Source: a bacterium
Lineage (GTDB): Bacteria > Patescibacteriota > Minisyncoccia > Phycocordibacterales > UBA9973
Assembly: GCA_027484965.1 (NCBI GenBank)
Contig: JAIXRY010000015.1
Span: forward strand, 91,807-155,806
Direction of reading: 5' to 3'
Length of the DNA stretch: 64,000 nucleotides
The stretch's first letter is position 1. Every line of letters begins with the position of its first letter. Under the pieces are notes generated by a model, which made no database searches, had not been told where the DNA came from, and was given only the letters and a program-made list of their open reading frames with translations. The position numbers and the translations under genes are program-made. Positions 16,736 through 64,000 of this stretch are shown here, in pieces.

Positions 16736-18970
16736 ATGAAAAAATATTCACCTATCATTACATTATGTCTTGCGCTTAGTTTGTTTGTTTTATTCCCAAA
16801 ACAAATACACGCATCATTTGATTTTACTGCTTCAGTATCTTCTGATATTGTTGAAAATGCCAAACCTGGAAATGATGGCACTAAATTAAACTTAAGATAT
16901 TCGGTAACAGCAGCTTCTGGAACAACTCAAACAAAGAGTATTAAAGTTTTCAAAAAAGACAATCCAACAGAAGTTGGTACTGTAAGTAATATTAGTACTA
17001 CTTATGTAAAACTTTACGATGAGGTTGGATGGGGTAGAAACGGCTCTCTGCCATATCATAACAAAGCGTTTTATGAACAAATAGGTACAAATCAGATTAC
17101 AAAAAGAAATTCTCTTTTTGTCTTGCTTTATAATGCTGTTCCAAAACAAGTTGATAAGCCAAATGAATTAATAAAAGGTACTCTTGTTTCTTGGCAAGAA
17201 ATACCTCTCAAAATAAATACTGTTTCAAATGATGGAAATATTGTTTTTGATTCTTTGATAAAAGATAAAAGTTACATTCCAGAAATTTTAGTCGTCAATA
17301 CTGGTTATGGTTCCAATTTAGTCGTCACTGGTAGTGCAATTAAAACAGGTAATACTGTAGGTGCTGGAAATACCTCAAGTGACGATCCTTTTGTGCAAGC
17401 TTCTATTAAGACTAAAGTGGTTTCTAATGTTACTCAATATAATATCTGTGTTGAGATAAATAAATACGCCAAAGCTGATAAGCCAATCAAAATAACAAAA
17501 GGAACTATTGTTGATGGAATTTTAGTCCCAAGCACTCCTTTGAGTGTTGTGAGTGTTACAGATCAAGTTCCAGAGACGCGTATTACTGATACTATGGCTC
17601 GTAGATTGCTTGACTGTACAGAACCTCAAGCGCTTCTTGCAAATACTTCATATGTCGCTGATTTTGATTTTTTAATTACAGATGACGATGCGTATGAACA
17701 AGATCCGGTAACAAGACCTTACTCAGTTCGTGTTTTAGTAAAGACTTATGCAAGTGGACTTGGAGCTGATATTAGTAGAGTGCCTTTATCTAATGGAAAT
17801 CCTGGTACAAATCAAACACCTTCAATCGGTAATTCTCCAAATCTAATTGCAACAAAATTAAGTAATGGTACACACAATGCTTGTGGTTATGTTGATCAAG
17901 CAGATAAGCTTTCAGATATAAACATATCTCTAACTATGGGGACACTAAGTCAGACAGGTAATGCAAGTCCTGTTATTACTCCTGATTATGATAATCGTAC
18001 AGTCACAAAAGCAAAAAGTGATATTAATGAGCAAATAAATCAAAGTACCAAGAGAGGTACTTACTGTACAAATTTTGGAGAACTACTTCCTGGAAACTAT
18101 GTCTTTAAAATGAGTACCATTTTTAATGGGCTTCCAAATATTACAGAATACAGAACTCTTTTTATTGGAGGGTTAAATCCTGGTAGAGTTCCTATGGTTG
18201 ACCCTGTAATTTCTGTTGTTTGGTCAAAAAAGAACAATGCATTTATTGTTACCGGAAAAATAACAAATCTTCCTCCTAATAATGGGGGTACAATAGTGCT
18301 TGTAAAAAAAGGTACTTTTCAAGAAATTAAGCCACTGCAAGCTGATATGGATGGATACTCTACTCCACAAAGAGAGTTTATTATTAGTGCGAAATTTAGA
18401 AATCTCGCCCCTGGTATCTATGTTGCTGTTGTGAGACCTTTACATTCAGATGCTACTCCATTTATTACACCTCAAGGTAGAATTGAGAGAGTTTCAGAAG
18501 AATTTGAAACCGAAAATATAAAAGCGATAAGTCCTGATGATACATTAGATCCGGGAACAGGTACAGGAACGGGAACTGGTTCCGGAACTGGTGGAGGTTT
18601 GTTTGATGATATTGGTGGAGATTTGCTTGAAATCCCAAAAAACGGACTTGTGTTGTGTGGAAGACCTGGTCAGCCTGCTTGTGATTTTAATATGTTGTTG
18701 ATAACTATAAATAAGGTTATTAATTTTGCACTTACGTTAATTGCTACTCCTATAATGCTCTATATGTTGTTTAAAACAGCATGGGAATTCTTTACAGCAG
18801 GAGGGAGTACAGATCAGATCAAGAGAGCAAAACAAAGACTACTCGCTATTGTTATTGGTTATGTGATTGCTCTTACTGCATGGCTTGTTATTAAGACAAT
18901 TATTATACTTCTGGTAGGTGAGGATAATATAACGGGAACTAACCCCATATTTAAGACATTCTTCAATTAA
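16736..18970 (+). CDS. large secreted protein with C-terminal VirB2/TrbC-like two-TM pilin module
   Basis: Signal peptide; about 640-aa extracellular region; Gly-Thr linker (GTGTGTGSGTGGG); C-terminal LLITINKVINFALTLIATPIMLYMLFKTAWEFF..GGSTDQIKRAKQ..LLAIVIGYVIALTAWLVIKTI has the same TM-loop-TM architecture as the four downstream small proteins. Confidence 0.5.
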   Translation: MKKYSPIITLCLALSLFVLFPKQIHASFDFTASVSSDIVENAKPGNDGTKLNLRYSVTAASGTTQTKSIKVFKKDNPTEVGTVSNISTTYVKLYDEVGWGRNGSLPYHNKAFYEQIGTNQITKRNSLFVLLYNAVPKQVDKPNELIKGTLVSWQEIPLKINTVSNDGNIVFDSLIKDKSYIPEILVVNTGYGSNLVVTGSAIKTGNTVGAGNTSSDDPFVQASIKTKVVSNVTQYNICVEINKYAKADKPIKITKGTIVDGILVPSTPLSVVSVTDQVPETRITDTMARRLLDCTEPQALLANTSYVADFDFLITDDDAYEQDPVTRPYSVRVLVKTYASGLGADISRVPLSNGNPGTNQTPSIGNSPNLIATKLSNGTHNACGYVDQADKLSDINISLTMGTLSQTGNASPVITPDYDNRTVTKAKSDINEQINQSTKRGTYCTNFGELLPGNYVFKMSTIFNGLPNITEYRTLFIGGLNPGRVPMVDPVISVVWSKKNNAFIVTGKITNLPPNNGGTIVLVKKGTFQEIKPLQADMDGYSTPQREFIISAKFRNLAPGIYVAVVRPLHSDATPFITPQGRIERVSEEFETENIKAISPDDTLDPGTGTGTGTGSGTGGGLFDDIGGDLLEIPKNGLVLCGRPGQPACDFNMLLITINKVINFALTLIATPIMLYMLFKTAWEFFTAGGSTDQIKRAKQRLLAIVIGYVIALTAWLVIKTIIILLVGEDNITGTNPIFKTFFN

Positions 18971-18988
18971 TAGGTTATAATTATTTAT

Positions 18989-19441
18989 ATGAAAAAGATA
19001 GTACCAACGTTTGGAATTTTAGGAATACTTTTTTTAGGAAGTATTTCACCTGTTTTTTTGTCTAACCAGAATCTTGTTCATGCTCAAGGAACATCGACAG
19101 GTACAACGACTGGGGGTGGGGGTGCGTCTACAGGGTCAGCATCTTCGAATACAAACAAATCATTCAACCTTTCTTTTACAATAGATAATCCTATTAAAGC
19201 AAACAACCTCCAAGAACTCATTGAAAGACTTTTAAAGCTTGTGTATCTTGTAGGTGTTCCAATACTTGTTTGTTTCTTGCTTTGGGCTGGGTTTCTATTT
19301 GTTGAAGCTCGCGGAAATGATAAGAAATTAGTTATTGCTCGTCAAAATTTATATAACGTCGTTATTGGGGCAGTTTTATTCCTCGGTGCATACACAATAG
19401 CAAAAGTTGTAATAGCAACATTAAAAGATATATTCAACTAA
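18989..19441 (+). CDS. pilin-like protein (TrbC/VirB2-like T4SS-pilin family resemblance)
   Basis: Signal peptide, Gly/Thr/Ser-rich linker, then two TM helices split by a short charged loop (WAGFLFVEARGNDKK). Confidence 0.5.
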   Translation: MKKIVPTFGILGILFLGSISPVFLSNQNLVHAQGTSTGTTTGGGGASTGSASSNTNKSFNLSFTIDNPIKANNLQELIERLLKLVYLVGVPILVCFLLWAGFLFVEARGNDKKLVIARQNLYNVVIGAVLFLGAYTIAKVVIATLKDIFN

Positions 19442-19445
19442 TAGT

Positions 19446-20264
19446 ATGAAAAATTTATTATACAAAATCATTGTTCCTTCATTACTTGTACTTGCTTTCA
19501 TAATCCCTATATTTCCCCAAAAAGCACAAGCTCTGACAGATCAAGAACAACAAGTAATTCTCCAGACAGCACTTTCTGCTATTATGATAGCTTTTCCGTA
19601 TATTTGTGGAGGTGCGTCTGTACCTACAGATACACCAGAGCAAGCGCAGCAACGTGAAAAAGTTAGACAAGCTTGTAGAAATACCGGGCAAATAAGTTCT
19701 CAAGTTATGTATATATTGATACAGTTATACCCTGAAGTATGTCAAAGAATGCCAAATGTTTGTTCTAGTATTATGCAAGTATTGGGTGCACTTGGTGGAA
19801 GTGGGGTTGTAGGTGGTTTTGGTGGTACAGGCCCTACAGTTATAGGAACTGGAGCGGGAGGAGCTATCTCTACTGGTCCAACTGCTGGTGGTGGTGGAGC
19901 TTTCGTTTCTACTGGCCCAACAGTTGCTAATATTACATACGCGTCCGGTCCTGCAAATGGAGGGTGCCCATCTGGTATATCTAATATTTCTGATATATAT
20001 CTACTCGCAAAATGTATTTTGGCTGGAATGGTTATTCCGATGATATTTATACTAGCATTCTTGGTATTTCTTTGGGGTGTGATGCAATTTATAAGAAAAG
20101 GAGACAATCAAGCAAAACGTCAAGAAGGTATTAATTTTATGTGGTACGGAATAGTTTCTCTTTTTGTAATGACTTCAGTGTGGGGAATTGTTAAGATTGC
20201 TACGACGACTCTCGGAGTAGATGGCACATATATACCAAAAGTAGAATCCCCAAAGAAAAACTAG
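19446..20264 (+). CDS. pilin-like protein (paralog)
   Basis: Same architecture; shared motifs FLWGVMQFIRKGDNQAKR and LFVMTSVWGIV. Confidence 0.5.
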   Translation: MKNLLYKIIVPSLLVLAFIIPIFPQKAQALTDQEQQVILQTALSAIMIAFPYICGGASVPTDTPEQAQQREKVRQACRNTGQISSQVMYILIQLYPEVCQRMPNVCSSIMQVLGALGGSGVVGGFGGTGPTVIGTGAGGAISTGPTAGGGGAFVSTGPTVANITYASGPANGGCPSGISNISDIYLLAKCILAGMVIPMIFILAFLVFLWGVMQFIRKGDNQAKRQEGINFMWYGIVSLFVMTSVWGIVKIATTTLGVDGTYIPKVESPKKN

Positions 20265-20356
20265 CACTTATATATATATATTTTGTATAATATGAAGAGT
20301 AGGCGCTGTCGTGTCTATGGACTATTAGTTTTTATTATTATTTATAATTTTTTATT

Positions 20357-20758
20357 ATGAAAAAGTTTATTCCTTTTGCAAGTGCACTTGCTCTTCCAGC
20401 TCTTGCTTTTGCACAAACTCGACCAGATTTTACTTATCTCGAATCTACATTTAATGCAGGTAAAGGTGTTTTAAGTGGTGCTATTAATGTGATAATGATT
20501 CTTGCATTCGTATATTTCCTTTGGACAGTTATTCAGTTTATTAGAGCAGAAGCTGGTAAAAAAGCAGATGCTCGTACAAATATGATTTATGCAATCATTG
20601 GTTTGTTTGTAATGACTTCTGTTTGGGGTATTGTTGGTATTCTTCGTCAAACAACTCAAGCAGGTCAAGGCGGTCAAGGTACTATTACTTGTCCTCCAGG
20701 AACTACTGCACAACAAGTAACTGGCGCTAATGGTCTTAGAACTGTTGTTTGTTACTAA
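20357..20758 (+). CDS. pilin-like protein (paralog)
   Basis: FLWTVIQFIRAEAGKKADAR and LFVMTSVWGIV motifs. Confidence 0.5.
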   Translation: MKKFIPFASALALPALAFAQTRPDFTYLESTFNAGKGVLSGAINVIMILAFVYFLWTVIQFIRAEAGKKADARTNMIYAIIGLFVMTSVWGIVGILRQTTQAGQGGQGTITCPPGTTAQQVTGANGLRTVVCY

Positions 20759-21087
20759 GTATGTTTTGGTTAATTCCTTTTACTCAAATAGCTCATGCAC
20801 AAGATGTGGGAGAAAAGTTGATTAATACTGTTTTAGACAAGATTATTAATCCACTAGTATTCTTCTTGTTCGTTGCAGCTCTTATATACTTTCTTTGGGG
20901 TGTCTTTATGTATCTCAAAGATGGTGATAAACAAGACGCTAGAACTACAGGTTCACGGCACATTCTTTGGGGGCTGGTGGGTTTGGTTATTATGATGAGT
21001 GTATACGGCATCATACGACTCGTTGTAAACACCTTCAACTTTCAAGCACCAAGTCGTACTGTAGACTTGAAGAGTATAGGGAAATAG
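20749..21087 (+). CDS. pilin-like protein (paralog)
   Basis: FLWGVFMYLKDGDKQDAR and VIMMSVYGII motifs. Confidence 0.5.
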   Translation: MLLSMFWLIPFTQIAHAQDVGEKLINTVLDKIINPLVFFLFVAALIYFLWGVFMYLKDGDKQDARTTGSRHILWGLVGLVIMMSVYGIIRLVVNTFNFQAPSRTVDLKSIGK

Positions 21088-22903: not shown

Positions 22904-22966
22904 TTTTTTGTCAATTTTGTTTTAATATATTATACACCTTTTATATAAAAAAGTCAAGGAGTTCTC

Positions 22967-23060
22967 GGATTTACTTTCTGGAAGCACACGTAAAATCGTG
23001 CTCGATTTTCTGCTCTGCTCGCGCCGTCGCGCTCCGCAAGGCTTCCAGAAAGTAATATCC
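22967..23060. other. structured intergenic element, candidate small ncRNA
   Basis: 19-20 bp closing stem ggatttactttctggaagc / gcttccagaaagtaatatcc enclosing inner hairpin cacg-taaaat-cgtg and a GC-rich core. Confidence 0.25.
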
Positions 23061-23285
23061 TCGCTCGATAGTTAGTACAAAAAACCTTAATAAATAAAGT
23101 TTTAGGGGAGAGGGAGGACTTGAAACTTACAGTTTCAGTACACCTTTTGGATATTTTATTTCACTCTGTTCATAAAAGTATCTCAAAAGCTTTTCAAGTC
23201 CTACTCCTGTTTTTAGAAAAAAAACAGTTGCGTCTCCCAAGCAAAAAGTCCCTAAAAGGGACTTTTTTGTGCTGACAGGACTTTC

Positions 23286-23420
23286 CGACTACGTCGGCAG
23301 GTACTTTTCAATCTCGTAAACTCGATAATGAAAAGTCTTTCAAGTCCTCACGAAAAGTGTGCAGACATTTTTCTTCCCGAGCACAAAATAAAAAGCCTCA
23401 AAAATGAGGCTTTTTATTTT
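23286..23420. repeat. tRNA-associated palindromic repeat unit (copy 1, downstream of tRNA-Leu-TAG)
   Basis: cgac-tac-gtcg hairpin, ggtacttttcaat, ataatgaaaagtctttcaagtcc motif, gcag-loop hairpin, and inverted copy of the tRNA T-arm/acceptor (ttcaagtcctc...ttcccgagcac). Confidence 0.5.
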
Positions 23421-23503
23421 GTGCTCGGGAGAGGACTTGAACCTCCATGGATCACTCCACCTGTTCCTAAGACAGGCGCGGCTACCAATTACGCCACCCG
23501 AGC
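23421..23503 (-). tRNA. tRNA-Leu (anticodon TAG)
   Basis: Minus-strand 83-nt cloverleaf read by eye: acceptor GCTCGGG/CCCGAGC, anticodon loop CTTAGGA, long variable arm, T-loop TTCAAGT. Confidence 0.8.
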
Positions 23504-23643
23504 ATTACAATATCAATAATGATTTTGTATAGAAATAGTACCATAAGATTTATATTTTTCAAAGTGAAAGATAATCATATAATATAGACACTTTTCCACA
23601 AAATTATCTTATTAATTTACTGTGTTTATGAGACAATATAAAT

Positions 23644-26600
23644 ATGTTAAATAATTTTAAATATTTTATAACCAGAAGCTATACACTTTTTGTGGTATCT
23701 ATCTTCATCTTCACATTTTCTATATTAAAAGTATCAGCTGTATACTATCCTACAGACAACATAACTAATCCTACATGTGCACCAGGTGCAGTAGGATGTT
23801 ATGTATCTTTACTTCCTGATCAGGTAGGTAATGCAGGTAAACTTTTAATTACTAACGGTACAAATCCTTCTTGGTCCAATACTATTGGAAATGATCTTAC
23901 TATAAATACTCTGACTGTTGGCTTAGGTGGTGGAAGTGTTTCTACTAACACAGCTGTTGGTGTTGAGACATTGTTTAGTAATACTACTGGAGGTGCTAAT
24001 ACTGCTAATGGTTTTAGATCTTTAAGAGAAAATACTACAGGTGATATGAATAGTGCTCTTGGATATAATTCACTTAGATATAATACAACCGGATCTGAAA
24101 ATGTTGCTTTTGGATATAATTCAATGTTTGCCAATACTTCAGGAGGTAAGAATTCAGCTTTTGGTAAAGAAACACTTTCTAGTAATACTACAGGTACTTA
24201 TAATACTGCAATAGGATATCAATCTCTCTTGTCTAATACATCAGGTGCATACAATGTTGCAATAGGTAATAATGCGCTTGATGCAAATACTACAGGTATA
24301 AGTAATATTGGATTTGGTCATAACGCTCTAGGAGTTAACACTTCCGGCTCATACAATATTGCTTCAGGTTGGAATACTTTATCTGCAAATACTACAGGTA
24401 GTCATAATATTGCTTTTGGTTCAGACACTCTAGGTTTAAATACTACAGGTATTCAAAATATTGCACTGGGACAACAGGCGCTAGTTAATAATTTGTCTGG
24501 TCAATATAATGTTTCAATAGGGACACAGTCACTTTTTAATAATACTACCGGTGGCAACAATCTAGCTTATGGGTACTATGCTGGTTACAATAGTCAGACA
24601 GGTTCAAATAATATTTTTATTGGAGCACAAACTGGTCTTGGTATAACAACAGGTTCAAACAACACAATCATTGGTGCTAATGTTACAGGACTCTCTTCAT
24701 CTCTTTCAAATAATATTATTATTGCAGACGGTGCAGGGAATCAAAGAATTAATATAGATAGTAATGGTAATGCAGAAATAGGTGGAAATATTTATTCTGC
24801 TGGTTTGAAGTGGAGTACAACAGCCCCTGTAGCTGACAGGCAATGGGTTGATGTAGGTTATGGAAATGGACTCTTTGTTGCTGTAGCTCAAGGTTCTGGA
24901 ACAGACAGAATTATGACATCTCCTGATGGTGTAAACTGGACATTGAGAACTCACTCTACTTCATCATTAAAATCAATCACTTATGGTAATGGAATATTCG
25001 TAGCGGCTGGTCATTCTGGTACCCGTTTTTTAACCTCTACAGATGGAATAACTTGGACAGCCCGTACTGGTACAGGACAATCGTTTTATGTAACTTACGG
25101 TAATGGTCTTTTTGTTGCTTCAAAAATAGATAATGCTGGGCTTAGAATTATAACATCTCCAGATGGAATAACTTGGACAGATAGAGTAACTCCTGTAGGA
25201 GCTGATAAACCTTGGGTTGGAATAACTTACGGTAATGGTCTTTTTGTTACTGTGGCTGAGACGAATGGAACACAGTCTATTATGACATCTCCAGATGGTA
25301 TAAACTGGACACTACAGACACACCCATCTGTTTCTTCTGGTGGATTTGAAAACGTTGCTTATGGTGATGGTAAATTTGTAGCTGTCGGTATTGGTGGTTT
25401 AGTTATGACATCTCCAGACGGAGTAAACTGGACACAACAGTCTTTCCCAAATGCAGCCCTTCTTTATCGAATAACTTATGCTGAGGGCATGTTTGTTACA
25501 GCTGGAGCTTTCTCTACAACAAACAACAATATTTATACTTCACCTGATGGTATAACTTGGACAACAAGAGTTGTTCCTAAAAATGATTGGGCTGGAGTTG
25601 CTTATGGTAATGGACGTTTTGTAATGGTTGCCTTTTCTGGAACTCTCGGTAGTCGTGTTGCATACTCTGGTAAAATGTCTACACTAGACACTTTAACAGC
25701 AAATATATTCCACGGTAATCATTTCTTTACTGCTAACATCGGCATCGGCACAACCTCTCCCTTCGGCAAACTCGACGTTGCAGGCTCATCATCAAGTACA
25801 GACTTAGTAGCATTCGACACAAACAGAAGTATCTCTGTAATCAACACAAACACTACAACAAACAACGCACAAGGTATAGCACTCCGTTCATATGGTACAG
25901 ACGGAACAACTATCCAATCAGGTGTAAAACTCCTTGCAGTTAACACAGCAAGAACAGCTACAACAATAACTTCTGATCTTGCAATCCTTACCAACAATGC
26001 TGGTACGATAAGTGAGAAGATGCGTATTCTTGCAAATGGAAAAGTAAATATTGGAACGGGTAATGTTTATAATACTGATTCAAATACTCTTCTGAATGTT
26101 TATGGTAATATGGGGGTTGTTAGAGCTAATAATCCTGCCTCTGTTTTTGTAGGAAGAACTCAATCAGGAGGACTTCCTACAGCTAGTGCTACATTAGGTA
26201 GTCTCGGAGCTGCGCTTTTTGATGGGACAAATTGGGTGGCTGGTGGTAATAGATTTGCTTTCTTTGCTGCAGAAAACTGGACAAATAGTGCGCAAGGCAC
26301 TTGGATGAGATATGCAAGTGTTCCAGTGGGTTCGAATGCATCTGTTAATATTTTAGAAATAACACCTTCAGGACAATTTAATTTTGGTACAAGCACTCTC
26401 TATCCAGCTCTCACAGAAACATCTCGATTGATGGTTAATGGTCTAGGTTCAACATCATCTACATTTACAGCTCAATTTCATAATTCAACAGGAACTTCAA
26501 ATTCTTTAGTTGTTCGTGATGATGGTAGAGTAGGTATAGGAAACAACGCTCCATCACACACCCTCCACGTCGGCTCAGGCTCTGTAGTCGGCATCGTCTC

Positions 26601-27264
26601 CCGCTTCCAAAACAGTACCGGAACCTGTGACATCAACCCAACAACAACATCACTCTCATGTAGTTCAGATATCAACCTCAAGAAGAACATCACAACTCTA
26701 AAAGATAATCAACCTTTCGTACTAAACTCTCAAACTCCAGATACAAATGTCCTTAAGAATCTAAACAAACTAACACCAGTTATCTACAACTGGACTACAG
26801 AACAAGACACAGCTACAAAACAAACAGGATTCATCGCACAAGACGTAGAACAAATCTTCCCATCTCTTGTATCTACAGACCCTACAACAAACCTCAAGTC
26901 TCTTAACTACATAGGTCTCATCCCATATGCTATAGAAGGTATTAAAGAGTTAGATATCAAGGTTAATCAGTTGAGTTCTTTGGATGATACAGTTGAAGGA
27001 ACATTTGCTTCATTGATAAAATCATATTTATCTAATGCTACAAATCGTATAACTCGTATATTTACAGGAGAAGTTTGTTTGACTGATAGTGATGGAAGTT
27101 CTGAATGTTTGAACAAACAAGAACTACACCAGTTGAAGCAATTGCTTAATAATCAAGGAGTATCAAATAATACTAGTAATCCTGTAGTAGAAGAAGAAGT
27201 TGTAATTCCTGATGAGCCTGCAATTACACCTGAAAATCCTGTAATAGAAGAAGTAATTGAATAA
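23644..27264 (+). CDS. giant tail-fibre-like surface protein with C-terminal peptidase S74 intramolecular-chaperone domain
   Basis: 1206 aa. N-terminal signal anchor; about 20 repeats of a 14-15 aa N-x-A-x-G unit, Hep_Hag/tail-fibre-like; eight V-x-YGNGLFVAV...IMTSPDG(V/I)NWT Asp-box-like propeller repeats; C-terminal SSDINLKKNI...TGFIAQDVEQIFPSLV...LNYIGLIPYAIEGIKELDIKVNQL matches the auto-cleaving chaperone domain of phage endosialidase/tail fibres. Confidence 0.6.
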   Translation: MLNNFKYFITRSYTLFVVSIFIFTFSILKVSAVYYPTDNITNPTCAPGAVGCYVSLLPDQVGNAGKLLITNGTNPSWSNTIGNDLTINTLTVGLGGGSVSTNTAVGVETLFSNTTGGANTANGFRSLRENTTGDMNSALGYNSLRYNTTGSENVAFGYNSMFANTSGGKNSAFGKETLSSNTTGTYNTAIGYQSLLSNTSGAYNVAIGNNALDANTTGISNIGFGHNALGVNTSGSYNIASGWNTLSANTTGSHNIAFGSDTLGLNTTGIQNIALGQQALVNNLSGQYNVSIGTQSLFNNTTGGNNLAYGYYAGYNSQTGSNNIFIGAQTGLGITTGSNNTIIGANVTGLSSSLSNNIIIADGAGNQRINIDSNGNAEIGGNIYSAGLKWSTTAPVADRQWVDVGYGNGLFVAVAQGSGTDRIMTSPDGVNWTLRTHSTSSLKSITYGNGIFVAAGHSGTRFLTSTDGITWTARTGTGQSFYVTYGNGLFVASKIDNAGLRIITSPDGITWTDRVTPVGADKPWVGITYGNGLFVTVAETNGTQSIMTSPDGINWTLQTHPSVSSGGFENVAYGDGKFVAVGIGGLVMTSPDGVNWTQQSFPNAALLYRITYAEGMFVTAGAFSTTNNNIYTSPDGITWTTRVVPKNDWAGVAYGNGRFVMVAFSGTLGSRVAYSGKMSTLDTLTANIFHGNHFFTANIGIGTTSPFGKLDVAGSSSSTDLVAFDTNRSISVINTNTTTNNAQGIALRSYGTDGTTIQSGVKLLAVNTARTATTITSDLAILTNNAGTISEKMRILANGKVNIGTGNVYNTDSNTLLNVYGNMGVVRANNPASVFVGRTQSGGLPTASATLGSLGAALFDGTNWVAGGNRFAFFAAENWTNSAQGTWMRYASVPVGSNASVNILEITPSGQFNFGTSTLYPALTETSRLMVNGLGSTSSTFTAQFHNSTGTSNSLVVRDDGRVGIGNNAPSHTLHVGSGSVVGIVSRFQNSTGTCDINPTTTSLSCSSDINLKKNITTLKDNQPFVLNSQTPDTNVLKNLNKLTPVIYNWTTEQDTATKQTGFIAQDVEQIFPSLVSTDPTTNLKSLNYIGLIPYAIEGIKELDIKVNQLSSLDDTVEGTFASLIKSYLSNATNRITRIFTGEVCLTDSDGSSECLNKQELHQLKQLLNNQGVSNNTSNPVVEEEVVIPDEPAITPENPVIEEVIE

Positions 27265-27329
27265 TATAAATTAAGTCTCAGTAGGGATCTTTCGTTACAC
27301 GAACAGTAGACCTTTTGCATTTATTTAAA

Positions 27330-27445
27330 TCATAGATTTTCATAAATAAGCAAAAGCTTTTCGATCCCTACACGCATATGAAGCAGTTCATATGCTTGAG
27401 GGGACAAAAAAACAAAAACACCAATTTGGTGTTTTTGTTTTTTTG
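27330..27445. repeat. tRNA-associated palindromic repeat unit (copy 2, downstream of tRNA-Lys)
   Basis: aaaagcttttcgatccctac + gcatatgaa-gcag-ttcatatgc hairpin + ttgaggggac(a)n ... tgtcccctca long palindrome ending inside the tRNA acceptor. Confidence 0.5.
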
Positions 27446-27518
27446 TCCCCTCAGTAGGGATCGAACCTACGACATTCTCCTTAAGAGGGAGCTACTCTAC
27501 CAGCTGAGTTATGAGGGG
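27446..27518 (-). tRNA. tRNA-Lys (anticodon CTT)
   Basis: Minus strand; acceptor CCCCTCA/TGAGGGG (unusual C1-G72), D-loop AGCTGGTA, anticodon loop CTCTTAA, T-loop TTCGATC. Confidence 0.7.
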
Positions 27519-27628
27519 TCTTATATTATATTTTAAAACTTACTTTTACCCCACAATTCTTTTGTTGAAGCCACTACAGCTGAGTTATGAGGGGATTATA
27601 TTAAAAAAAATATGAAGGGGTCTCGCCT

Positions 27629-27727
27629 TAATGAAAAGTCTTTTGAAGCCCATCAAGGCAATAAGCTGGGCACCTGTGGACGGTCTTGGGCACAAAGTAA
27701 ATAAACCTAGAAGGTTTATTTACTTTG
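27629..27727. repeat. tRNA-associated palindromic repeat unit (copy 3, downstream of tRNA-Leu-TAA)
   Basis: aatgaaaagtcttttgaagccc motif then gcacaaagtaaataaacc-taga-aggtttatttactttgtgc hairpin running into the tRNA 3' end. Confidence 0.5.
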
Positions 27728-27809
27728 TGCCCAGAGTGGGGGTCGAACCCACATCCCTTGCGAGACACGATTTTAAGTCGTGCGCGTATACCAATTCCGC
27801 CATCCGGGC
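27728..27809 (-). tRNA. tRNA-Leu (anticodon TAA)
   Basis: Minus strand; acceptor GCCCGGA/TCTGGGC, anticodon loop CTTAAAA, long variable arm, T-loop TTCGACC. Confidence 0.8.
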
Positions 27810-27871
27810 AAATTATTTATTTTTAAATTATAGCATAAAATTCAGGGACAGGAATTAAATGGCGGGAATCT

Positions 27872-28002
27872 CGACTTACAGTCGCGGGTACTTTTCAATT
27901 TTTTACTTCATAAAAAATAATGAAAAGTCTTTCGATTCCCGCACGCAAGCAAAGCAGTTTGCTTGCTCCACGTCTCAAGAAAACCCCTAATGGGTTTTCT
28001 TG
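27872..28002. repeat. tRNA-associated palindromic repeat unit (copy 4, downstream of tRNA-Cys)
   Basis: cgact-tac-agtcg hairpin, ggtacttttcaat, ataatgaaaagtctttcgattcccgc, gcaagcaaa-gcag-tttgcttgc hairpin, ccacgtctcaagaaaacccc-taat-ggggttttcttgagacgtgg. Confidence 0.5.
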
Positions 28003-28074
28003 AGACGTGGGCGGGAATCGAACCCGCGCATGGCGGTTTTGCAGACCGCAGCGTTACCACTTCGCCACCACGTC
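28003..28074 (-). tRNA. tRNA-Cys (anticodon GCA)
   Basis: Minus strand; acceptor GACGTGG/CCACGTC, discriminator U, anticodon loop CTGCAAA, T-loop TTCGATT. Confidence 0.8.
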
Positions 28075-36779: not shown

Positions 36780-37640
36780 TTATTTTTTTATTATTTCCCC
36801 AAACTCTTCTTTAATCAAACCTTTTATCTCCATTAAGGACAAAAGTATAGAAGCTTTACTTGTTTCCATACCCAATTTGCTTATAAGAATATCTTTTGAT
36901 AAAGGTTCTTTTATTATCTCTAAAACTAATTTTTCTTCTGTATTTAAATTTATATTTTCTTGTTCATTTTGTTGATTATCTTTTTCAAATCCTAGTGCTT
37001 CAAGTAAGTCATCTGGCGAGGTGATAGGAGTTGCTCCAAGCCTAAGGAATTGGTTTGTACCTTTTGAATTATCAGAAAATATTGGTCCAGGTACTACTAG
37101 AACATCACGATTGTACTCTACAGCAAGACGGGCTGTGATAAGTGTTCCTGATTTTTCTTCCGCTTCTACTATGAGAATTGCTTTGCATAATCCAGCCATT
37201 ATTCTATTTCTTCTTGGGAAGCTCCAAAGAGTCGCTCGCATACTTGGCTCGAATTCAGAAAGTAAACATCCTCCTTTTTGAAGTATTTCTTCTGCAAGAC
37301 GAAAATTTGTTGCTGGATACAAGACATTTTTATCGAGTCCTGATCCTGGAATTGCAAGCGTAAGAATATTGTTCTCTATTGCGCGTTTATGTGCCAAACT
37401 ATCGATACCGAGCGCAAGTCCAGACACTATTACTACAGGATACCCTTTGAGTGAATCTACGAGTTTTTCTAAAACATCTTTTCCATATGATGTATATTTG
37501 CGTGAACCAACAATTCCTAAATAAATAAATTCTTCCGGATCTGGTATTTTCCCACGAATAAAAAGTTTCTTTGGTGGTTCTGGAATTTCTAAAAGACAAG
37601 GAGGGAATTCGGAGGGATCTAGTTTATAGATGTCTTCCAT
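36780..37640 (-). CDS. dprA: DNA processing protein DprA (Smf)
   Basis: Rossmann-like core GIVGSRKYTSYG ... AEEKSGTLITARLAVEYNRDVLVVPG. Confidence 0.8.
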   Translation of the reverse strand: MEDIYKLDPSEFPPCLLEIPEPPKKLFIRGKIPDPEEFIYLGIVGSRKYTSYGKDVLEKLVDSLKGYPVVIVSGLALGIDSLAHKRAIENNILTLAIPGSGLDKNVLYPATNFRLAEEILQKGGCLLSEFEPSMRATLWSFPRRNRIMAGLCKAILIVEAEEKSGTLITARLAVEYNRDVLVVPGPIFSDNSKGTNQFLRLGATPITSPDDLLEALGFEKDNQQNEQENINLNTEEKLVLEIIKEPLSKDILISKLGMETSKASILLSLMEIKGLIKEEFGEIIKK

Positions 37641-45770: not shown

Positions 45771-45841
45771 TGGGGAATCGTCTAATGGTAGGACTTCGGA
45801 TTTTGGTTCCGACTATCTAGGTTCGAGTCCTAGTTCCCCAG
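45771..45841 (+). tRNA. tRNA-Gln (anticodon TTG)
   Basis: U1-A72 acceptor TGGGGAA/TTCCCCA, D-loop TAATGGTAG, anticodon stem TCGGA/TCCGA with loop TTTTGGT, T-arm CTAGG-TTCGAGT-CCTAG. Confidence 0.75.
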
Positions 45842-45866
45842 CTATATACGGAAGAATTAAGAAATA

Positions 45867-45961
45867 GGGGATTTTGGTTCCGTTTATCTAGGCGCCTATT
45901 TTTAAAGAACTGAGTGATTATAAAAATAGTGCGTTTCGAAGAGGCGAGTCCTAGTTCCCCA
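45867..45961 (+). pseudogene. tRNA-Gln 3'-fragment copy interrupted by a ~50-nt palindromic insertion
   Basis: ggggattttggttccgtttatctagg + [cgc-ctattttta...tataaaaatag-tgcg tttcgaagag] + gcgagtcctagttcccca mirrors the anticodon-to-3' part of the adjacent tRNA-Gln but lacks the 5' half. Confidence 0.35.
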
Positions 45962-46118
45962 ACCAATAAGAGTTAGAACAAATACGTCTAGTCGATTGAT
46001 AGATAAAAGCTTTCCACAAAATAGGTATTTATTTGTATTACGCACCGGGATATAATGTAACTTATATGAAAAAGTGTTTTATAATAGATAAATTAACGAT
46101 TACATTTGCACTCCTCTC

Positions 46119-62967: not shown

Positions 62968-64000
62968 TAATAAACACATGTTAAGTACTCTCAAGTACTT
63001 CTTGAGCCGAGCCTACACGATAGTATCTATCGTGCTTTTTGTACTATCTTACGGAGCTCTCAAAGTATCAGCTATATACTATCCTACAGATAATATAACA
63101 AACCCTACATGTGCACCAGGGGACTCTGGTTGTTATGTATCTTTACTTCCTGACCAAACATCTAATGCAGGGAAGTTTTTGACTACAAACGGCACTACTA
63201 CATCTTGGGCTACGGTGTCTGGTGGTATTTCAAGTTTCAACACTAGAACAGGTGCTATCACTTTAACATCTGGTGATGTAACTGGAGCTCTAGCGTACAC
63301 ACCTTTAAATAAAACTGGAGATACGATGACTGGAGACTTGAATTTGTTAAATATTCAAGCATCTACTTCTTCTGGAATTAATCTAAAAAATATCGGGGGT
63401 ACAACAATTTTTAATGTTGGGTCTGGTAGTGGAGTAAATGCAACAATCACTGCTCCATTAGCTTTAACGGGTGCTTTAACTCAAACAGGAAACGCAGACG
63501 CAGTTCAACTTCGCGTTCGAGGACACAGCACTCAAACTTCAGACTTGACTCAATGGGTGAATTCTTCTGGAACAGTTCTTAATTCAATCAGTGGAGCTGG
63601 TAACGCTGTTTTTGGGCCATCTATCGCACAAGTTCCAAAGGTAGGAATTAGTACAACTAACATCAATCAACCTCTTTTAGTTTTAAAAGCTCCTACTTCT
63701 TTCGCATCATTTTTATTTTTTGCTTTAGATTCTTCTGGGGTTCAAGTTGCTACTATTCATAATTCTGGTGAAAGTATTTTTAAATCTATTACAACAAGGA
63801 GTTCTTTAAACATTGAATCTACAGGAGATGCAACTATTTTTGTCGGTTCTCCAGACGGTGCTACATCTTCGATTGATTTTTTTTCAGATGGTAATGCAAA
63901 TTTTAAGGTTTTAGTAGAACCTTCAACAGATAATTTTATTATAAAGGATGAGGAGACTAATACTCCTTGGTTTAATATTGATAGAGCTAATCGTCGTGTT
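62968..64000 (+). CDS. tail-fibre-like surface protein paralog, partial (runs off window end)
   Basis: ATG at 62968, open to the window end; N-terminus VSAIYYPTDNITNPTCAPGDSGCYVSLLPDQ is near-identical at DNA level to 23720-23840; contains the GDTMTGDL motif common in phage tail-fibre proteins. Confidence 0.5.

Follow-up and report, generated by a model that had tools for sequence, protein, structure and literature searches.

Non-coding cassettes behind the tRNA genes of the window

The window (the whole 64-kb stretch of DNA analysed here) carries genes for tRNA-Cys, tRNA-Leu(TAA), tRNA-Lys and tRNA-Leu(TAG) on its minus strand, each with its own non-coding cassette or cassette stack behind it, and a tRNA-Gln gene on the plus strand (Table 1). 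These are the only five true tRNAs called by ARAGORN and the Rfam tRNA model, and the cassettes drew no sub-threshold tRNA or tmRNA match at E≤10. A first-pass annotation had reported serial partial duplications of tRNA ends in this region. All the repeats it listed exist in the window, at positions that differ by 1–4 bases from those given. The tRNA-Lys 3'-arm repeat GATCCCTACTGAG (minus strand), placed at 27279-27291 and 27449-27461, has exactly two window copies, at 27277-27289 and 27450-27462, against 0.06 expected by chance. The first 18 nt of tRNA-Lys (CCCCTCATAACTCAGCTG) likewise occur exactly twice (27501-27518 and 27577-27594; chance expectation, 0.02), which bears out the recurrence of the tRNA 5' end, and an 8-nt leader, AATATAA(G/T), is common to both copies. 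A further "miniature" copy, AGACCCCTTCATA at about 27611-27623, is present and within one edit of the leader plus 5' end, but is weak by itself; 0.32 matches of this type are expected per window, and one unrelated match lies at 56046. The degenerate copy of the tRNA-Leu(TAG) 3' arm was confirmed as an exact 11-nt match, TTCAAGTCCTC at 23114-23124, and is the sense copy of the second cassette behind that tRNA. The window also holds a second direct-repeat pair of a tRNA 3' segment, at 27861-27870 and 28010-28019.

Three features absent from the first-pass annotation accompany these repeats. The same tRNA segments also occur in inverted form, at 27360-27371, 27931-27942, 23339-23349 and 23193-23202. 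The acceptor 3' strands of all four minus-strand tRNAs are inside palindromes of 19–28 bp that are 100% Watson-Crick. Finally, the motif AAAGACTTTTCATTA is common to three of the spacers.

Table 1. Features of the tRNA loci, with positions counted from the first base of the window.
Feature	Position	Strand	Evidence or remarks
tRNA-Cys(GCA)	28002..28074	-	ARAGORN; Rfam tRNA, 66.4 bits
Perfect 19-bp palindrome	27968-27986 / 27992-28010		last 8-9 nt of tRNA-Cys belong to one arm
Type-a cassette behind tRNA-Cys	27861..28001	-	covariance model R1 match 27853-27975, 100.2 bits, E=1e-21, the sequence being part of the R1 seed alignment
Terminator-like hairpin and anti-acceptor arm (Cys)	27968-28010	-	
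hp2 (Cys)	27945-27966	-	CTGC loop
Anti-T arm (Cys)	27931-27942	-	
P2 (Cys)	~27890-27928	-	
P3 (Cys)	27872-27884	-	TGTAA loop
Direct copy of tRNA 3' segment (Cys)	27861-27870	-	GATTCCCGCC
tRNA-Leu(TAA)	27727..27809	-	ARAGORN and Rfam
Perfect 22-bp palindrome	27687-27708 / 27712-27733		contains the tRNA-Leu(TAA) 3' end
Broken cassette behind tRNA-Leu(TAA)	27603..27726	-	terminator-like palindrome, then type-a module fragment
Type-a module fragment	27629-27646		TCAAAAGACTTTTCATTA; intact sense copy absent
Decayed tandem pseudo-tRNA-Lys and leader	27519..27602	-	18 nt at 27577-27594 match the tRNA-Lys 5' end exactly; a degenerate D arm and acceptor 3' strand (TGTGGGG) follow; T arm deleted
tRNA-Lys(CTT)	27445..27518	-	ARAGORN and Rfam
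Perfect 28-bp palindrome	27397-27424 / 27426-27453		last 9 nt of tRNA-Lys belong to one arm
Cassette behind tRNA-Lys	27277..27444	-	R1 match 27272-27401, 65.4 bits, E=4e-13, the sequence lying outside the R1 seed; ends 12 nt from the fibre gene stop codon
Palindrome and anti-acceptor arm (Lys)		-	
hp2 (Lys)	27374-27395	-	
Anti-T arm (Lys)	27360-27371	-	
P2 (Lys)	~27310-27358	-	
P3 (Lys)	27291-27303	-	
Direct copy (Lys)	27277-27289	-	GATCCCTACTGAG
Fibre-like gene	23644..27264	+	1206 aa, Peptidase_S74 chaperone domain; between Lys cassette and tRNA-Leu(TAG)
tRNA-Leu(TAG)	23421..23503	-	ARAGORN and Rfam
Perfect 26-bp palindrome	23375-23400 / 23405-23430		contains the tRNA-Leu(TAG) 3' end
Cassette 1 behind tRNA-Leu(TAG), type a	23269..23420	-	R1 match 23269-23383, 86.4 bits; anti-T copy 23339-23349; terminal degenerate tRNA 3'-end copy AAAGTCCTGTCAGCAC
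Cassette 2 behind tRNA-Leu(TAG)	23104..23268	-	R1 match 23104-23239, 25.8 bits, E=0.0024; own terminator-like hairpin; anti-T arm 23193-23202; P3 (TGTAA loop) 23121-23137
Cassette 3 behind tRNA-Leu(TAG), type-b-like remnant	22958..23103	-	local alignment to type-b cores; long hairpin, arms 22971-22985 / 23041-23055, around GGAGCGCGACGGCGCGAG
Native downstream flank (next gene's promoter)	starts ~22957		CTTGACTTTT; promoter-like site 22957-22929
tRNA-Gln(TTG), then pseudo-tRNA-Gln	45771..45963	+	tRNA at 45771-45842; tRNA nt 28-51 copied at 45869-45892 and nt 54-70 at 45945-45961; 52-nt hairpin insert in T loop; sense copy from C56, as in the cassettes

Anatomy and predicted fold of the units

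The cassette units are about 105–307 nt long (median, 145) and no ORF fits inside them. Each begins, in many cases, with a terminator-like hairpin and continues with an antisense arm, a small closing hairpin/loop or an alternative multi-helix core (types a, b, c and d) and a sense arm. The antisense arm is complementary to the last ~19–23 nt of the resident tRNA (nt ~52/56-74, from T loop to C74) and is split by two conserved hairpins, hp2 near the acceptor/T-stem boundary and P2 at the T loop. The sense arm repeats the tRNA 3' end in direct orientation, as a rule over 19 nt (C56 to C74); the repeats measure 9–23 nt (mode, 19) among the at least 37 sites described below, and the tRNA itself is left intact. 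The distal copies of the window are truncated inside the acceptor strand and may therefore be immobile relics. A simple terminator scan made no call on the first hairpins, the T run being inside the extended palindrome; by eye, the palindromes consist of a core stem between an A tract and a T tract, as in CACCAA-A-TTGGTG TTTTTGTTTTTTT. In two related loci (L099 and L169) the first hairpin of the unit is the native terminator of the tRNA.

When single-stranded, the arms are predicted to pair into a helix whose 3' strand is that of the tRNA acceptor/T-arm stack, with a three-way junction as the cap. The stems covary, with 86.7% of cells paired in type a (72.6% in shuffles and 37–50% in slid controls), changes on both sides in 25 of 39 pairs, and 91.4% of cells paired in type b against 83.4% in shuffles. 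The sense strand folds on average 3.7 kcal/mol better and is more stable than the antisense strand in 26 of 35 units. Type-b cores have an invariant G.U pair (9/9) and other G.U pairs on the sense strand, and conservation extends to junction bases, among them CGAAAG, TACTG and the loops TGTAA and CTGC.

Strand bias, G.U pairs and conserved junction bases of this kind favour the main alternative to mobile DNA, possible if rather doubtful, namely that the cassettes encode structured, tRNA-like RNAs, transcribed together with the tRNA or next to it, in which the antisense arm, hp2 and the sense arm make up an acceptor/T-arm minihelix that has the 3' strand of the tRNA and acts at the RNA level. 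Such RNAs could serve as an RNase P or RNase Z signal for the upstream 3' end, as a decoy or, for type b, as a new ribozyme, and would spread mainly by the portable homology of the flanking tRNA genes after DNA uptake; the window does encode DprA, a mediator of DNA-uptake recombination. In the hp2-bearing type-a family, hp2 occupies the acceptor/T-stem boundary, the point at which a real tRNA branches into its D and anticodon arms; this position also fits the proposal, as do three loci (L123, L165 and L182) in which the unit begins right behind an encoded ...CACCA, so that an RNase P cut there would yield a mature tRNA 3' end. However, a terminator-like hairpin with T runs precedes the rest in many units, including all four in the window, and thus much of the unit may lack transcription from the tRNA promoter. 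Type-a helices show no G.U excess (A.C and G.U cells number 15 each), a complete minihelix cannot form from window units that have no distal acceptor strand, and both ARAGORN and the Rfam tRNA model are blind to the units. Furthermore, most orthologous tRNAs do without a unit, and the stacks, permutations and strain-level replacements described below are unexpected for a simple processing signal. The type-b G.U pairs and sense-strand stability, although expected of a transcribed functional RNA, also fit a strand-specific fold of single-stranded DNA.

Scans of Rfam 15 returned only tRNAs and chance miRNA-type matches (the window and 20 loci at the gathering thresholds; the region and 13 loci by E value), placing the cassettes outside tRNA, tmRNA, mascRNA and other tRNA-like Rfam families and outside the known self-cleaving ribozymes of that release. 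When known motifs were sought by eye (hammerhead CUGANGA / GAAA / UH, HDV-like, group II domain V and K-turn), only a GAAA and a tandem-GA internal loop were similar, too little for membership to be claimed. An intron was also rejected: the upstream tRNA is complete and the distal copy often has no acceptor strand, so splicing across the unit would give no tRNA. A study of group I introns in Patescibacteria tRNAs concerns position 35/36 of the anticodon loop and not units like those described here (10.1101/2025.07.03.662931). A literature search, incomplete in coverage, found no description of such units. To judge from these sequence and literature searches, the cassettes appear to match no RNA family or described element.

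The cassettes form a family in related genomes

Comparison loci were all fetched with one tRNA-Leu(TAA) 30-mer, which biases the sampling, and the site and source counts are those of the matches listed. Among these matches, the covariance model found at least 37 cassette sites in 29 of 121 sources, which are related, Parcubacteria-type metagenome contigs. The cassette-bearing tRNAs are Leu(TAA), Leu(TAG), Lys, Cys, Tyr, Thr and Gln, and every R1 match (25–130 bits) lies on the strand of a tRNA and directly 3' of it. Different tRNAs and genomes have P3, P2 and type-b cores in common, the model scores reaching 130 bits. The hp2 sequence GCAAGCAAACTGCTTTGCTTGC is identical behind the tRNA-Cys of the window and the tRNA-Leu(TAA) of L175, and near-identical at about 10 other sites. 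Arrays of units are present in L115, L118, L169 and L190, as in the window. In viral contigs, two conserved cassette motifs gave one chance match in a coding region and the tRNA 30-mer gave none. Logan contigs end within the repeated module, and look-ups of flanking ORFs gave identical contigs stopping inside the repeat.

In L195 the sense arm (CTCGGGC) and the antisense arm (GCACGAG) fit each other and not the resident tRNA (TCCGGGC); a cassette unit is thus self-consistent and can be foreign. This mutual fit is also compatible with the tRNA-like RNA proposal. The L195 join falls at the very 3' terminus of the tRNA and not in its T loop.

Turnover of units between close relatives

The same Cys-LeuTAA-Lys-LeuTAG cluster, free of cassettes and with spacers of 3–150 nt, is found in a close relative with 53% IF-2 identity, a Candidatus Taylorbacteria genome (L001), and in most of the 120 metagenome loci fetched. 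Filled and empty versions of a site can be paired: the flank of L142 past its distal copy is the flank found right behind the tRNA in L116, and the native flank of the window's tRNA-Leu(TAG) stack lies directly behind that tRNA in L116, L120, L142 and L155. Strain L081 has flanks 98.7% identical to those of the window, whereas the cassette interiors differ behind tRNA-Cys and tRNA-Leu(TAA); at the latter site L081 has an intact but different (type c) cassette. Likewise, L115 equals L190 plus one 183-nt unit adjoining the tRNA, with flanks 98–100% identical. The order of units also differs between genomes, being tRNA-X-S-terminator in L099 and tRNA-terminator'-Y-S-X-S-Z-terminator in L169. Unit Z of L169 entered without a sense arm, so a sense copy is not obligatory. 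New units enter beside the tRNA, and units are permuted and replaced.

We compared the relatives with the expectation of an identical arrangement free of polymorphism; instead, their empty sites, swapped interiors and extra unit favour mobility. The earlier suggestion, that insertion at tRNA 3' ends left the repeats as its footprints, is upheld by this extensive insertion/deletion polymorphism. Its companion suggestion, replication slippage at the palindromes, fares differently on its two sides, because conserved interior modules common to different tRNAs and genomes make slippage alone insufficient, and hairpin-templated changes are nonetheless visible. Over the part of the Lys cassette shared by the window and L081 (to the end of the L081 contig), the sole difference is the central base of the 57-nt palindrome, A versus T. 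The two differences between L169 and L146 together make one compensatory pair, and two of the three differences in unit E2 between L115 and L190 are compensatory.

Such changes could suggest that there is no element at all and that the arms were made locally, by slippage and template switching at terminator palindromes together with tandem duplication and decay of tRNAs, the likeness between sites reflecting common constraints. Perfect palindromes running from the terminators into the tRNA 3' end, the flipped central base of the Lys palindrome, the compensatory double changes in near-identical copies and the decayed tandem pseudo-tRNAs that adjoin tRNA-Lys and tRNA-Gln are all in keeping with local origin. 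Yet we consider it unlikely, given that hp2 is identical or near-identical at so many sites, that the P3, P2 and type-b cores recur from one tRNA and genome to another, and that whole units are present or absent, with clean junctions, between near-identical genomes. The shared modules largely refute local origin as the sole cause.

The fibre gene is not bracketed by tRNA fragments

The first-pass annotation placed the fibre gene in an island-like context bounded by tRNA fragments. This part of its reading did not hold, as no copy of any tRNA end flanks 23504-27276. The tRNA-Lys repeat pair encloses only a 168-nt non-coding cassette (27277-27444), and the tRNA-Leu(TAG) fragments are all downstream of that tRNA, within the three stacked cassettes at 22958-23420. 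The gene (GC 0.375, against 0.345 for the window) has no homologue in the other loci, and an exact protein look-up found no other contig. It occupies an inter-tRNA position where other relatives hold other inserted genes, in some cases LAGLIDADG-type endonuclease genes (judged from motifs in the translations). "Hot spot" is therefore a fair description, and "island bounded by att repeats" is not.

Direct repeats running from the T loop to the tRNA 3' end are the classic identity block of tRNA-targeting integrases. Set against L001 and most relatives, the fibre gene counts as an insertion, and genes of other kinds, LAGLIDADG-type endonucleases included, sit at inter-tRNA positions elsewhere. 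Nevertheless, it is highly improbable that the repeats are the attL/attR footprints of a classical integrase-mediated island with the fibre gene as cargo. Besides leaving the fibre gene unbracketed, the repeat pairs enclose only 95–190 nt with no ORF, and the inverted core copies and covarying conserved hairpins are foreign to classical attP arms. Distal repeats lie at most 450 nt from their own tRNA in all loci, save for one inverted duplication in L131, and no large element with the same repeats was present within the examined loci. A search of the neighbourhood for an integrase gave none in the scanned window ORFs or among the 25 commonest of 58 Pfam families near cassette-bearing clusters (107 ORFs); these 25 families also included no recombinase, transposase or reverse transcriptase. 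The Pfam scans of both ORF sets, which were also our search for a linked enzyme, showed housekeeping genes.

A proposed model of cassette mobility and its relation to known systems

The best explanation, in which we place about as much belief as doubt, is that the repeats are the arms of small non-coding cassettes inserted directly behind tRNA 3' ends, or behind earlier copies of such ends, and that the cassettes are non-autonomous mobile DNA. The observations behind it are the modular anatomy, the stem covariation, the spread over several tRNAs and genomes, the presence/absence polymorphism, the arrival of new units beside the tRNA, the reordering and replacement of units and the hairpin-symmetric mutations. 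By analogy with characterized elements, we infer that mobility would proceed by recombination at a copy of the tRNA 3' end, the folded arm pair mimicking the target duplex with the logic of folded single-stranded sites, as in integron attC x attI and CTX-phage attP x dif. Each inserted sense arm would be a fresh target, so that recombination among the copies would enlarge and shuffle the stacks. Repair templated by the hairpins (quasi-palindrome template switching) would preserve the perfect complementarity of the arms to the functional tRNA. Any enzyme would be supplied from outside the cassettes, none being encoded within them. Against the proposal, no recombinase, HUH nuclease or reverse transcriptase is tied to the cassettes, neither an excised circle nor a junction was seen, target mimicry alone does not explain how arms come to match a new tRNA species, and both the missing sense arm of unit Z in L169 and the truncated distal copies of the window depart from the expected layout.

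Several features of the units recall integron cassettes. Units are arrayed behind a fixed site, at least one new unit entered proximally (L115 versus L190), and unit order varies from genome to genome. Each unit terminates in an imperfect inverted repeat that can fold as a single strand, one of its arms having extra-helical parts, and the layout is site copy, content, inverse arm, loop and site copy. Unlike integron cassettes, however, the units have no ORF, their bulges are whole hairpins rather than single bases, their target is a tRNA gene end, and no IntI is among the 25 commonest of 58 nearby families, a listing from which a single-copy match could have escaped. The sense arm is a 19–23-nt copy of the tRNA 3' end that starts in GGTTCGA and does not fit the core sites R''/R' (RYYYAAC / GTTRRRY), the 7-bp GTTRRRY core included. 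CTX-phage type elements, which use XerCD and dif, similarly have inverted target-like arms that fold into a duplex copy of the chromosomal target, and their integrated form keeps the antisense arm beside one of two direct target copies; by the same analogy, a host enzyme would do the work here. The target in our case is a tRNA 3' end and not dif, and the units are 100–300 nt long with no phage genes. Integrative elements that use tyrosine integrases to target tRNAs share the direct repeat from T loop to 3' end and the intact tRNA, but the inserts described here (95–190 nt) come without integrase or cargo and with an inverted core copy and covarying hairpins, and the L195 join is misplaced for such an element.

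Casposons of archaea are Cas1-dependent transposons of 8–20 kb that encode Cas1 and a polymerase and have terminal inverted repeats and target duplications of ~14–15 bp; they insert at tRNA gene 3' ends, duplicate a target segment and stack in tandem at one site. The cassettes resemble them in these last three respects but have neither coding capacity nor terminal inverted repeats, and Cas1 is absent from the 25 commonest of 58 nearby families. Miniature repeats such as MITEs, REP/BIME, Correia, RPE and PATE are, like the cassettes, small, non-coding, hairpin-forming, multi-copy and strain-polymorphic. In contrast to these, the cassettes are strictly behind tRNAs, with arms tailored to the neighbouring tRNA, and have no terminal inverted repeats or short fixed target duplication: unit ends differ between types and are not mutual inverted copies, and the duplication is a 19–23-nt tRNA-end copy. 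Finally, tRNA-like processing signals are found downstream of another RNA in mascRNA, behind MALAT1, and in the t-elements of plant mitochondria. A downstream acceptor/T-arm-like helix is common to both, and cleavage of that helix at its 5' edge by RNase P would, by analogy, define the upstream 3' end. The cassettes differ in that a three-way junction replaces the T loop, that tRNA models do not recognise them and that they are apparently mobile and often parted from the tRNA by a terminator-like hairpin.

Implications for tRNA loci of the Patescibacteria

CPR/Patescibacteria have tiny genomes, usually with one gene per tRNA. In the 64-kb window, 1–3 structured non-coding units stand behind nearly every tRNA, and their turnover between strains outpaces point mutation. 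The cassettes could serve as strain markers; they also break assemblies, as seen in the Logan contigs, and the pseudo-tRNA fragments confuse annotation. Tentatively, and with more doubt than belief, we propose that the units are an undescribed class of protein-less cassettes with a folded acceptor/T-arm mimic as their sole "machinery", which would guide them to the end of the cognate tRNA gene (3') via a host recombinase acting on the single-stranded hairpin or via an RNA intermediate that undergoes tRNA-like processing. Of the core types at least one, the type b that has an invariant G.U pair and a three-way junction, would then represent a new RNA motif, catalytic or protein-binding, and the tRNA loci of CPR bacteria would be gene-less, integron-like arrays. 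If the cassettes are mobile, they would represent a new way of targeting tRNA genes with enzyme-free cassettes and a natural case in which a folded strand mimics its target. Should they instead act as RNAs, they would comprise several new classes of structured RNA linked to the formation of tRNA 3' ends, in a lineage about whose RNA processing little is known.

Anatomy of the tRNA-associated units

The window is cellular DNA (34.5% G+C) with genes for DNA polymerase III alpha, GyrA, IF-2, RbfA, ClpB, topoisomerase I, several aminoacyl-tRNA synthetases and DprA, and the nearest named relative that we obtained is Candidatus Taylorbacteria (Parcubacteria, CPR; IF-2 identity 53%). ARAGORN and Rfam made the same five tRNA calls. 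Behind each of the four minus-strand tRNAs lies a small, non-coding and hairpin-rich piece of DNA (hereafter, a unit or cassette) with a common modular layout. Each unit opens with a perfect palindrome whose arms measure 19-28 bp; the tRNA acceptor 3' strand falls within one arm, which makes the far arm its antisense copy. The palindrome core is terminator-like (A tract, stem-loop and T tract), and a consensus scan calls no terminator at these first hairpins because the T run sits inside the palindrome. Next is the 9-bp hairpin hp2, whose loop is CTGC, and then the T loop and T-stem 3' strand in antisense, with GAAAG behind them. After these come the hairpin P2 (GACTTTTCA...TGAAAAGT or GCTTTTGC...GCAAAAG); a junction, TACTG or similar, leading to the short P3 hairpin (TGTAA loop, stem variable among copies); and a direct repeat of tRNA sequence that reaches from the T loop into the acceptor strand. 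The three units behind tRNA-Leu(TAG) are followed by the native flank CTTGACTTTT, which directly follows the tRNA in other genomes. Three independent Logan contigs (L204-L206), all 100% identical to the window, stop at one base (23332) within the repeat module AAAGACTTTTCATTA, which shows that the cassettes interrupt short-read assembly.

Features of the window and of the comparison loci (L-numbers: related genomes or metagenome contigs)
Feature	Position	Strand	Remarks
tRNA-Cys	28002-28074	minus	downstream of infB-rbfA; ARAGORN and Rfam
tRNA-Leu(TAA)	27727-27809	minus	downstream of infB-rbfA; ARAGORN and Rfam
tRNA-Lys	27445-27518	minus	downstream of infB-rbfA; ARAGORN and Rfam
Fibre-like gene	23644-27264	plus	between tRNA-Lys and tRNA-Leu(TAG)
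tRNA-Leu(TAG)	23421-23503	minus	after fibre-like gene; ARAGORN and Rfam
Unit 1 behind tRNA-Leu(TAG)	23269-23420	minus
Unit 2 behind tRNA-Leu(TAG)	23104-23268	minus
Unit 3 behind tRNA-Leu(TAG)	22958-23103	minus	type-b-like remnant
tRNA-Gln	45771-45842	plus	ARAGORN and Rfam
LAGLIDADG-type candidate	L120:5348-5980		3' end abuts tRNA-Leu(TAG) start
LAGLIDADG-type candidate	L147		between tRNA-Lys 992-1065 and tRNA-Leu 114-198
LAGLIDADG-type candidate	L168		between 7962 and 8557

The first-pass annotation had read short direct repeats of tRNA ends as footprints of integration and excision or, alternatively, of replication slippage. Every repeat that it named is present in the window, at coordinates shifted by 1-4 bases. 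The tRNA-Lys 3'-arm repeat GATCCCTACTGAG occurs twice (27277-27289 and 27450-27462; chance expectation 0.06), the first 18 nt of tRNA-Lys are duplicated (27501-27518 and 27577-27594; chance expectation 0.02) and the tRNA-Leu(TAG) T-arm copy maps to 23114-23124. One edit at most separates the 'miniature' copy (about 27611-27623) from the leader plus 5' end, but this match is not significant alone (0.32 expected per window). The direct repeats are the sense copies, T loop into acceptor strand, that close the modular units. The spacer between tRNA-Leu(TAA) and tRNA-Lys contains a broken unit and a decayed tandem pseudo-tRNA-Lys with its leader, from which the 5'-end duplication derives. A pseudo-tRNA-Gln (45865-45963) with a deleted D arm and a 52-nt hairpin insert in the T loop follows tRNA-Gln. 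Its sense copy begins at C56, like those of the cassettes, and it possibly represents an early or alternative version of their architecture.

The fibre gene and the tRNA cluster

The spacer between tRNA-Lys and tRNA-Leu(TAG) is 3941 nt in the window versus 3-155 nt in most loci among the matches listed, which identifies the fibre gene as an insertion relative to relatives. Its proposed placement in an island bounded by tRNA fragments is not supported: no tRNA-end repeats bracket the gene. Its composition does not differ strikingly from the window, and a homologue is absent from the other loci compared. Other genomes hold other genes at inter-tRNA positions; thus, the tRNA cluster is a hot spot. 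In three related genomes, a free-standing gene of about 210 aa between tRNA-Lys and tRNA-Leu(TAG) carries two LAGLIDADG-like motifs (IGVIATDGNL and FFRGCIDGDGSI) and, judging by these translated motifs, is a candidate LAGLIDADG-type endonuclease gene.

Within the fibre gene, a periodic repeat of 51 nt (17 residues) is present in 12 copies (23980-24623). About six longer repeats (117-132 nt; 24831-25643), which match DUF6242 weakly, come after it, and the arrangement suggests a repetitive shaft followed by a propeller-like domain. A second ORF (62978-63343), running towards the window end, matches residues 1-136 of the fibre-like protein with 48% identity and is thus a paralogous N-terminal module. 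In another locus (L131:279-4402), two inverted partial tRNA-Leu(TAA) copies flank about 4 kb, one ORF of which resembles a serine recombinase fragment; the segment may be invertible or mobile, or an assembly artefact.

A family of units with rapid turnover

A metagenome scan with one tRNA-Leu(TAA) 30-mer recovered at least 120 loci from related genomes, a sample biased by having been obtained entirely through one tRNA. Among the matches listed, most loci have the Cys/Leu-TAA/Lys/Leu-TAG cluster, its tRNAs spaced by a few to about 150 nt, and units of like logic occur at 37 or more tRNA sites in 29 of the 121 sources, behind tRNAs for Leu(TAA), Leu(TAG), Lys, Cys, Tyr, Thr and Gln. At these listed sites, the antisense copy lies 25-75 nt and the direct copy 95-190 nt downstream of the tRNA, the commonest direct copy spans 19 nt (C56 to C74, '...CAC|') and unit length ranges from 105 to 307 nt (median, 145). 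The core may be of type a, the form seen in the window; type b, which is GC-rich (GAAAGCCGGAGCG-hairpin-CGAGGCGGGGTCGCG-hairpin-CCTGTGACC); type c (GAAGCCYGATTGAG...CCAATTRGGRTACTG-NNNN-TGTAA-NNNN); or of further types. The hp2 hairpin is identical at the tRNA-Cys site of the window and a tRNA-Leu(TAA) site elsewhere (L175), and near-identical at about ten further sites. The units are a family rather than a local oddity. They are distinct from the group I introns at position 35/36 of Patescibacteria tRNAs (10.1101/2025.07.03.662931).

In Candidatus Taylorbacteria (L001), the four tRNAs are 8, 84 and 45 nt apart, without units or fibre gene. A Logan contig (L081) with 98.7% identity to the window across infB-rbfA-tRNA-Cys has units with the same boundaries but different interiors behind tRNA-Cys and tRNA-Leu(TAA), and the same unit as the window behind tRNA-Lys, up to the contig end. 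L116 is an empty site, its flank directly after the tRNA matching that of L142 after the distal copy. L115 equals L190 plus one 183-nt unit adjoining the tRNA; the tRNA and the new copy share a new acceptor allele (T), whereas the older distal copies retain the old one (C). The order in L099 is tRNA-X-S-terminator (S, tRNA-end copy) and in L169 it is tRNA-terminator'-Y-S-X-S-Z-terminator, where Z lacks its own S. Therefore, units enter directly after the '...CAC' end of a tRNA or of a copy, can carry in a terminator and vary in order. In L195, the sense (CTCGGGC) and antisense (GCACGAG) arms match each other but the resident tRNA differs (TCCGGGC), so that arm, core and sense copy make up a single foreign-derived unit, attached at the extreme 3' end of the tRNA.

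Folding at the DNA or RNA level

The antisense pieces jointly span tRNA nt 74 to 52, so that the whole unit forms one long hairpin with interruptions, the tRNA 3' end serving as its 3' arm. In the type-a alignment (n=11), 86.7% of cells are paired, compared with 72.6% in shuffles and 37-50% with slid partners, and both sides changed in 25 of 39 pairs; for type b (n=9), the values are 91.4% and 83.4% in shuffles. Further copies scored 25-130 bits with a home-made type-a covariance model, whose E-values are rough. Some are stacked in twos or threes, and they all lie on the tRNA strand, immediately 3' of a tRNA. Rfam scans of the window and of comparison loci returned tRNAs and, chance miRNA-type hits aside, no other family, and neither ARAGORN nor the tRNA model recognised the units as tRNAs.

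Evidence for the level at which the units fold is mixed. Counting for DNA-level hairpins, all four window palindromes are 100% Watson-Crick, A.C and G.U cells are equally frequent in type-a helices (15 each out of 413) and differences between near-identical copies are almost all hairpin-symmetric. Across 135 nt of tRNA-Lys 3' end and cassette, the window and L081 differ once, A versus T at the centre (27425) of a perfect palindrome of 57 nt (27397-27453), as a hairpin flip would produce. L169 and L146 differ at two positions that together make up one compensatory pair, and two of the three differences in unit E2 of L115/L190 are compensatory. Hairpin-symmetric changes are what template switching within quasi-palindromes yields, a process that would also preserve full complementarity between the antisense arm and the tRNA strand under selection. 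A strand-specific fold, of RNA or of one DNA strand, is favored by an invariant G.U pair (9/9) and other sense-strand G.U pairs in type b, and by the better folding of sense strands in 26 of 35 units (mean, 3.7 kcal/mol). The main rival reading, that the units are an RNA-level tRNA-like structure, draws on these type-b wobble pairs, on conserved junction bases, on the type-a family having hp2 at the acceptor/T-stem boundary, and on units that start directly after ...CACCA. Yet in many units, including all those of the window, a terminator-like hairpin separates the tRNA from the remainder, which argues against efficient co-transcription, and we regard this reading as rather unlikely.

Proposed mobile cassettes at tRNA 3' ends

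Our preferred reading, to which we give about even chances, is that the units are non-autonomous mobile cassettes that target the 3' ends of tRNAs. In integron attC sites and CTX-phage attP, a folded hairpin mimics the target duplex and recombines with the target. By analogy with both, a small circle carrying such a hairpin would generate the observed layout of site copy, spacer, antisense arm, loop and site copy. No enzyme for the cassettes was found among the scanned ORFs of the window, which are housekeeping genes, or among the commonest families of 107 ORFs near cassette-bearing clusters, also housekeeping; nor did the loci examined contain a larger element using the unit repeats. Matching of the arms to a new tRNA species could, as a guess, involve interior exchange by recombination between units and hairpin-templated arm correction. 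Mobility and an RNA-level role are compatible, as a mobile unit may encode an RNA that aids its own processing or spread.

The four tRNAs form one tight cluster in relatives, and -10-like boxes lie behind the cassettes upstream of tRNA-Leu(TAA) (TGCTATAAT; 27810-27860) and tRNA-Lys (TATAAT; 27519-27545). The cassettes seem to split one tRNA operon into separately terminated and promoted units. Two other features of the window are relevant to DNA uptake by the source organism: ORFs with T4SS-pilin-like domains, clustered at 16736-21087 upstream of the tRNA-Leu(TAG) units, and the gene (36780-37640) for DprA, a mediator of DNA uptake and recombination.
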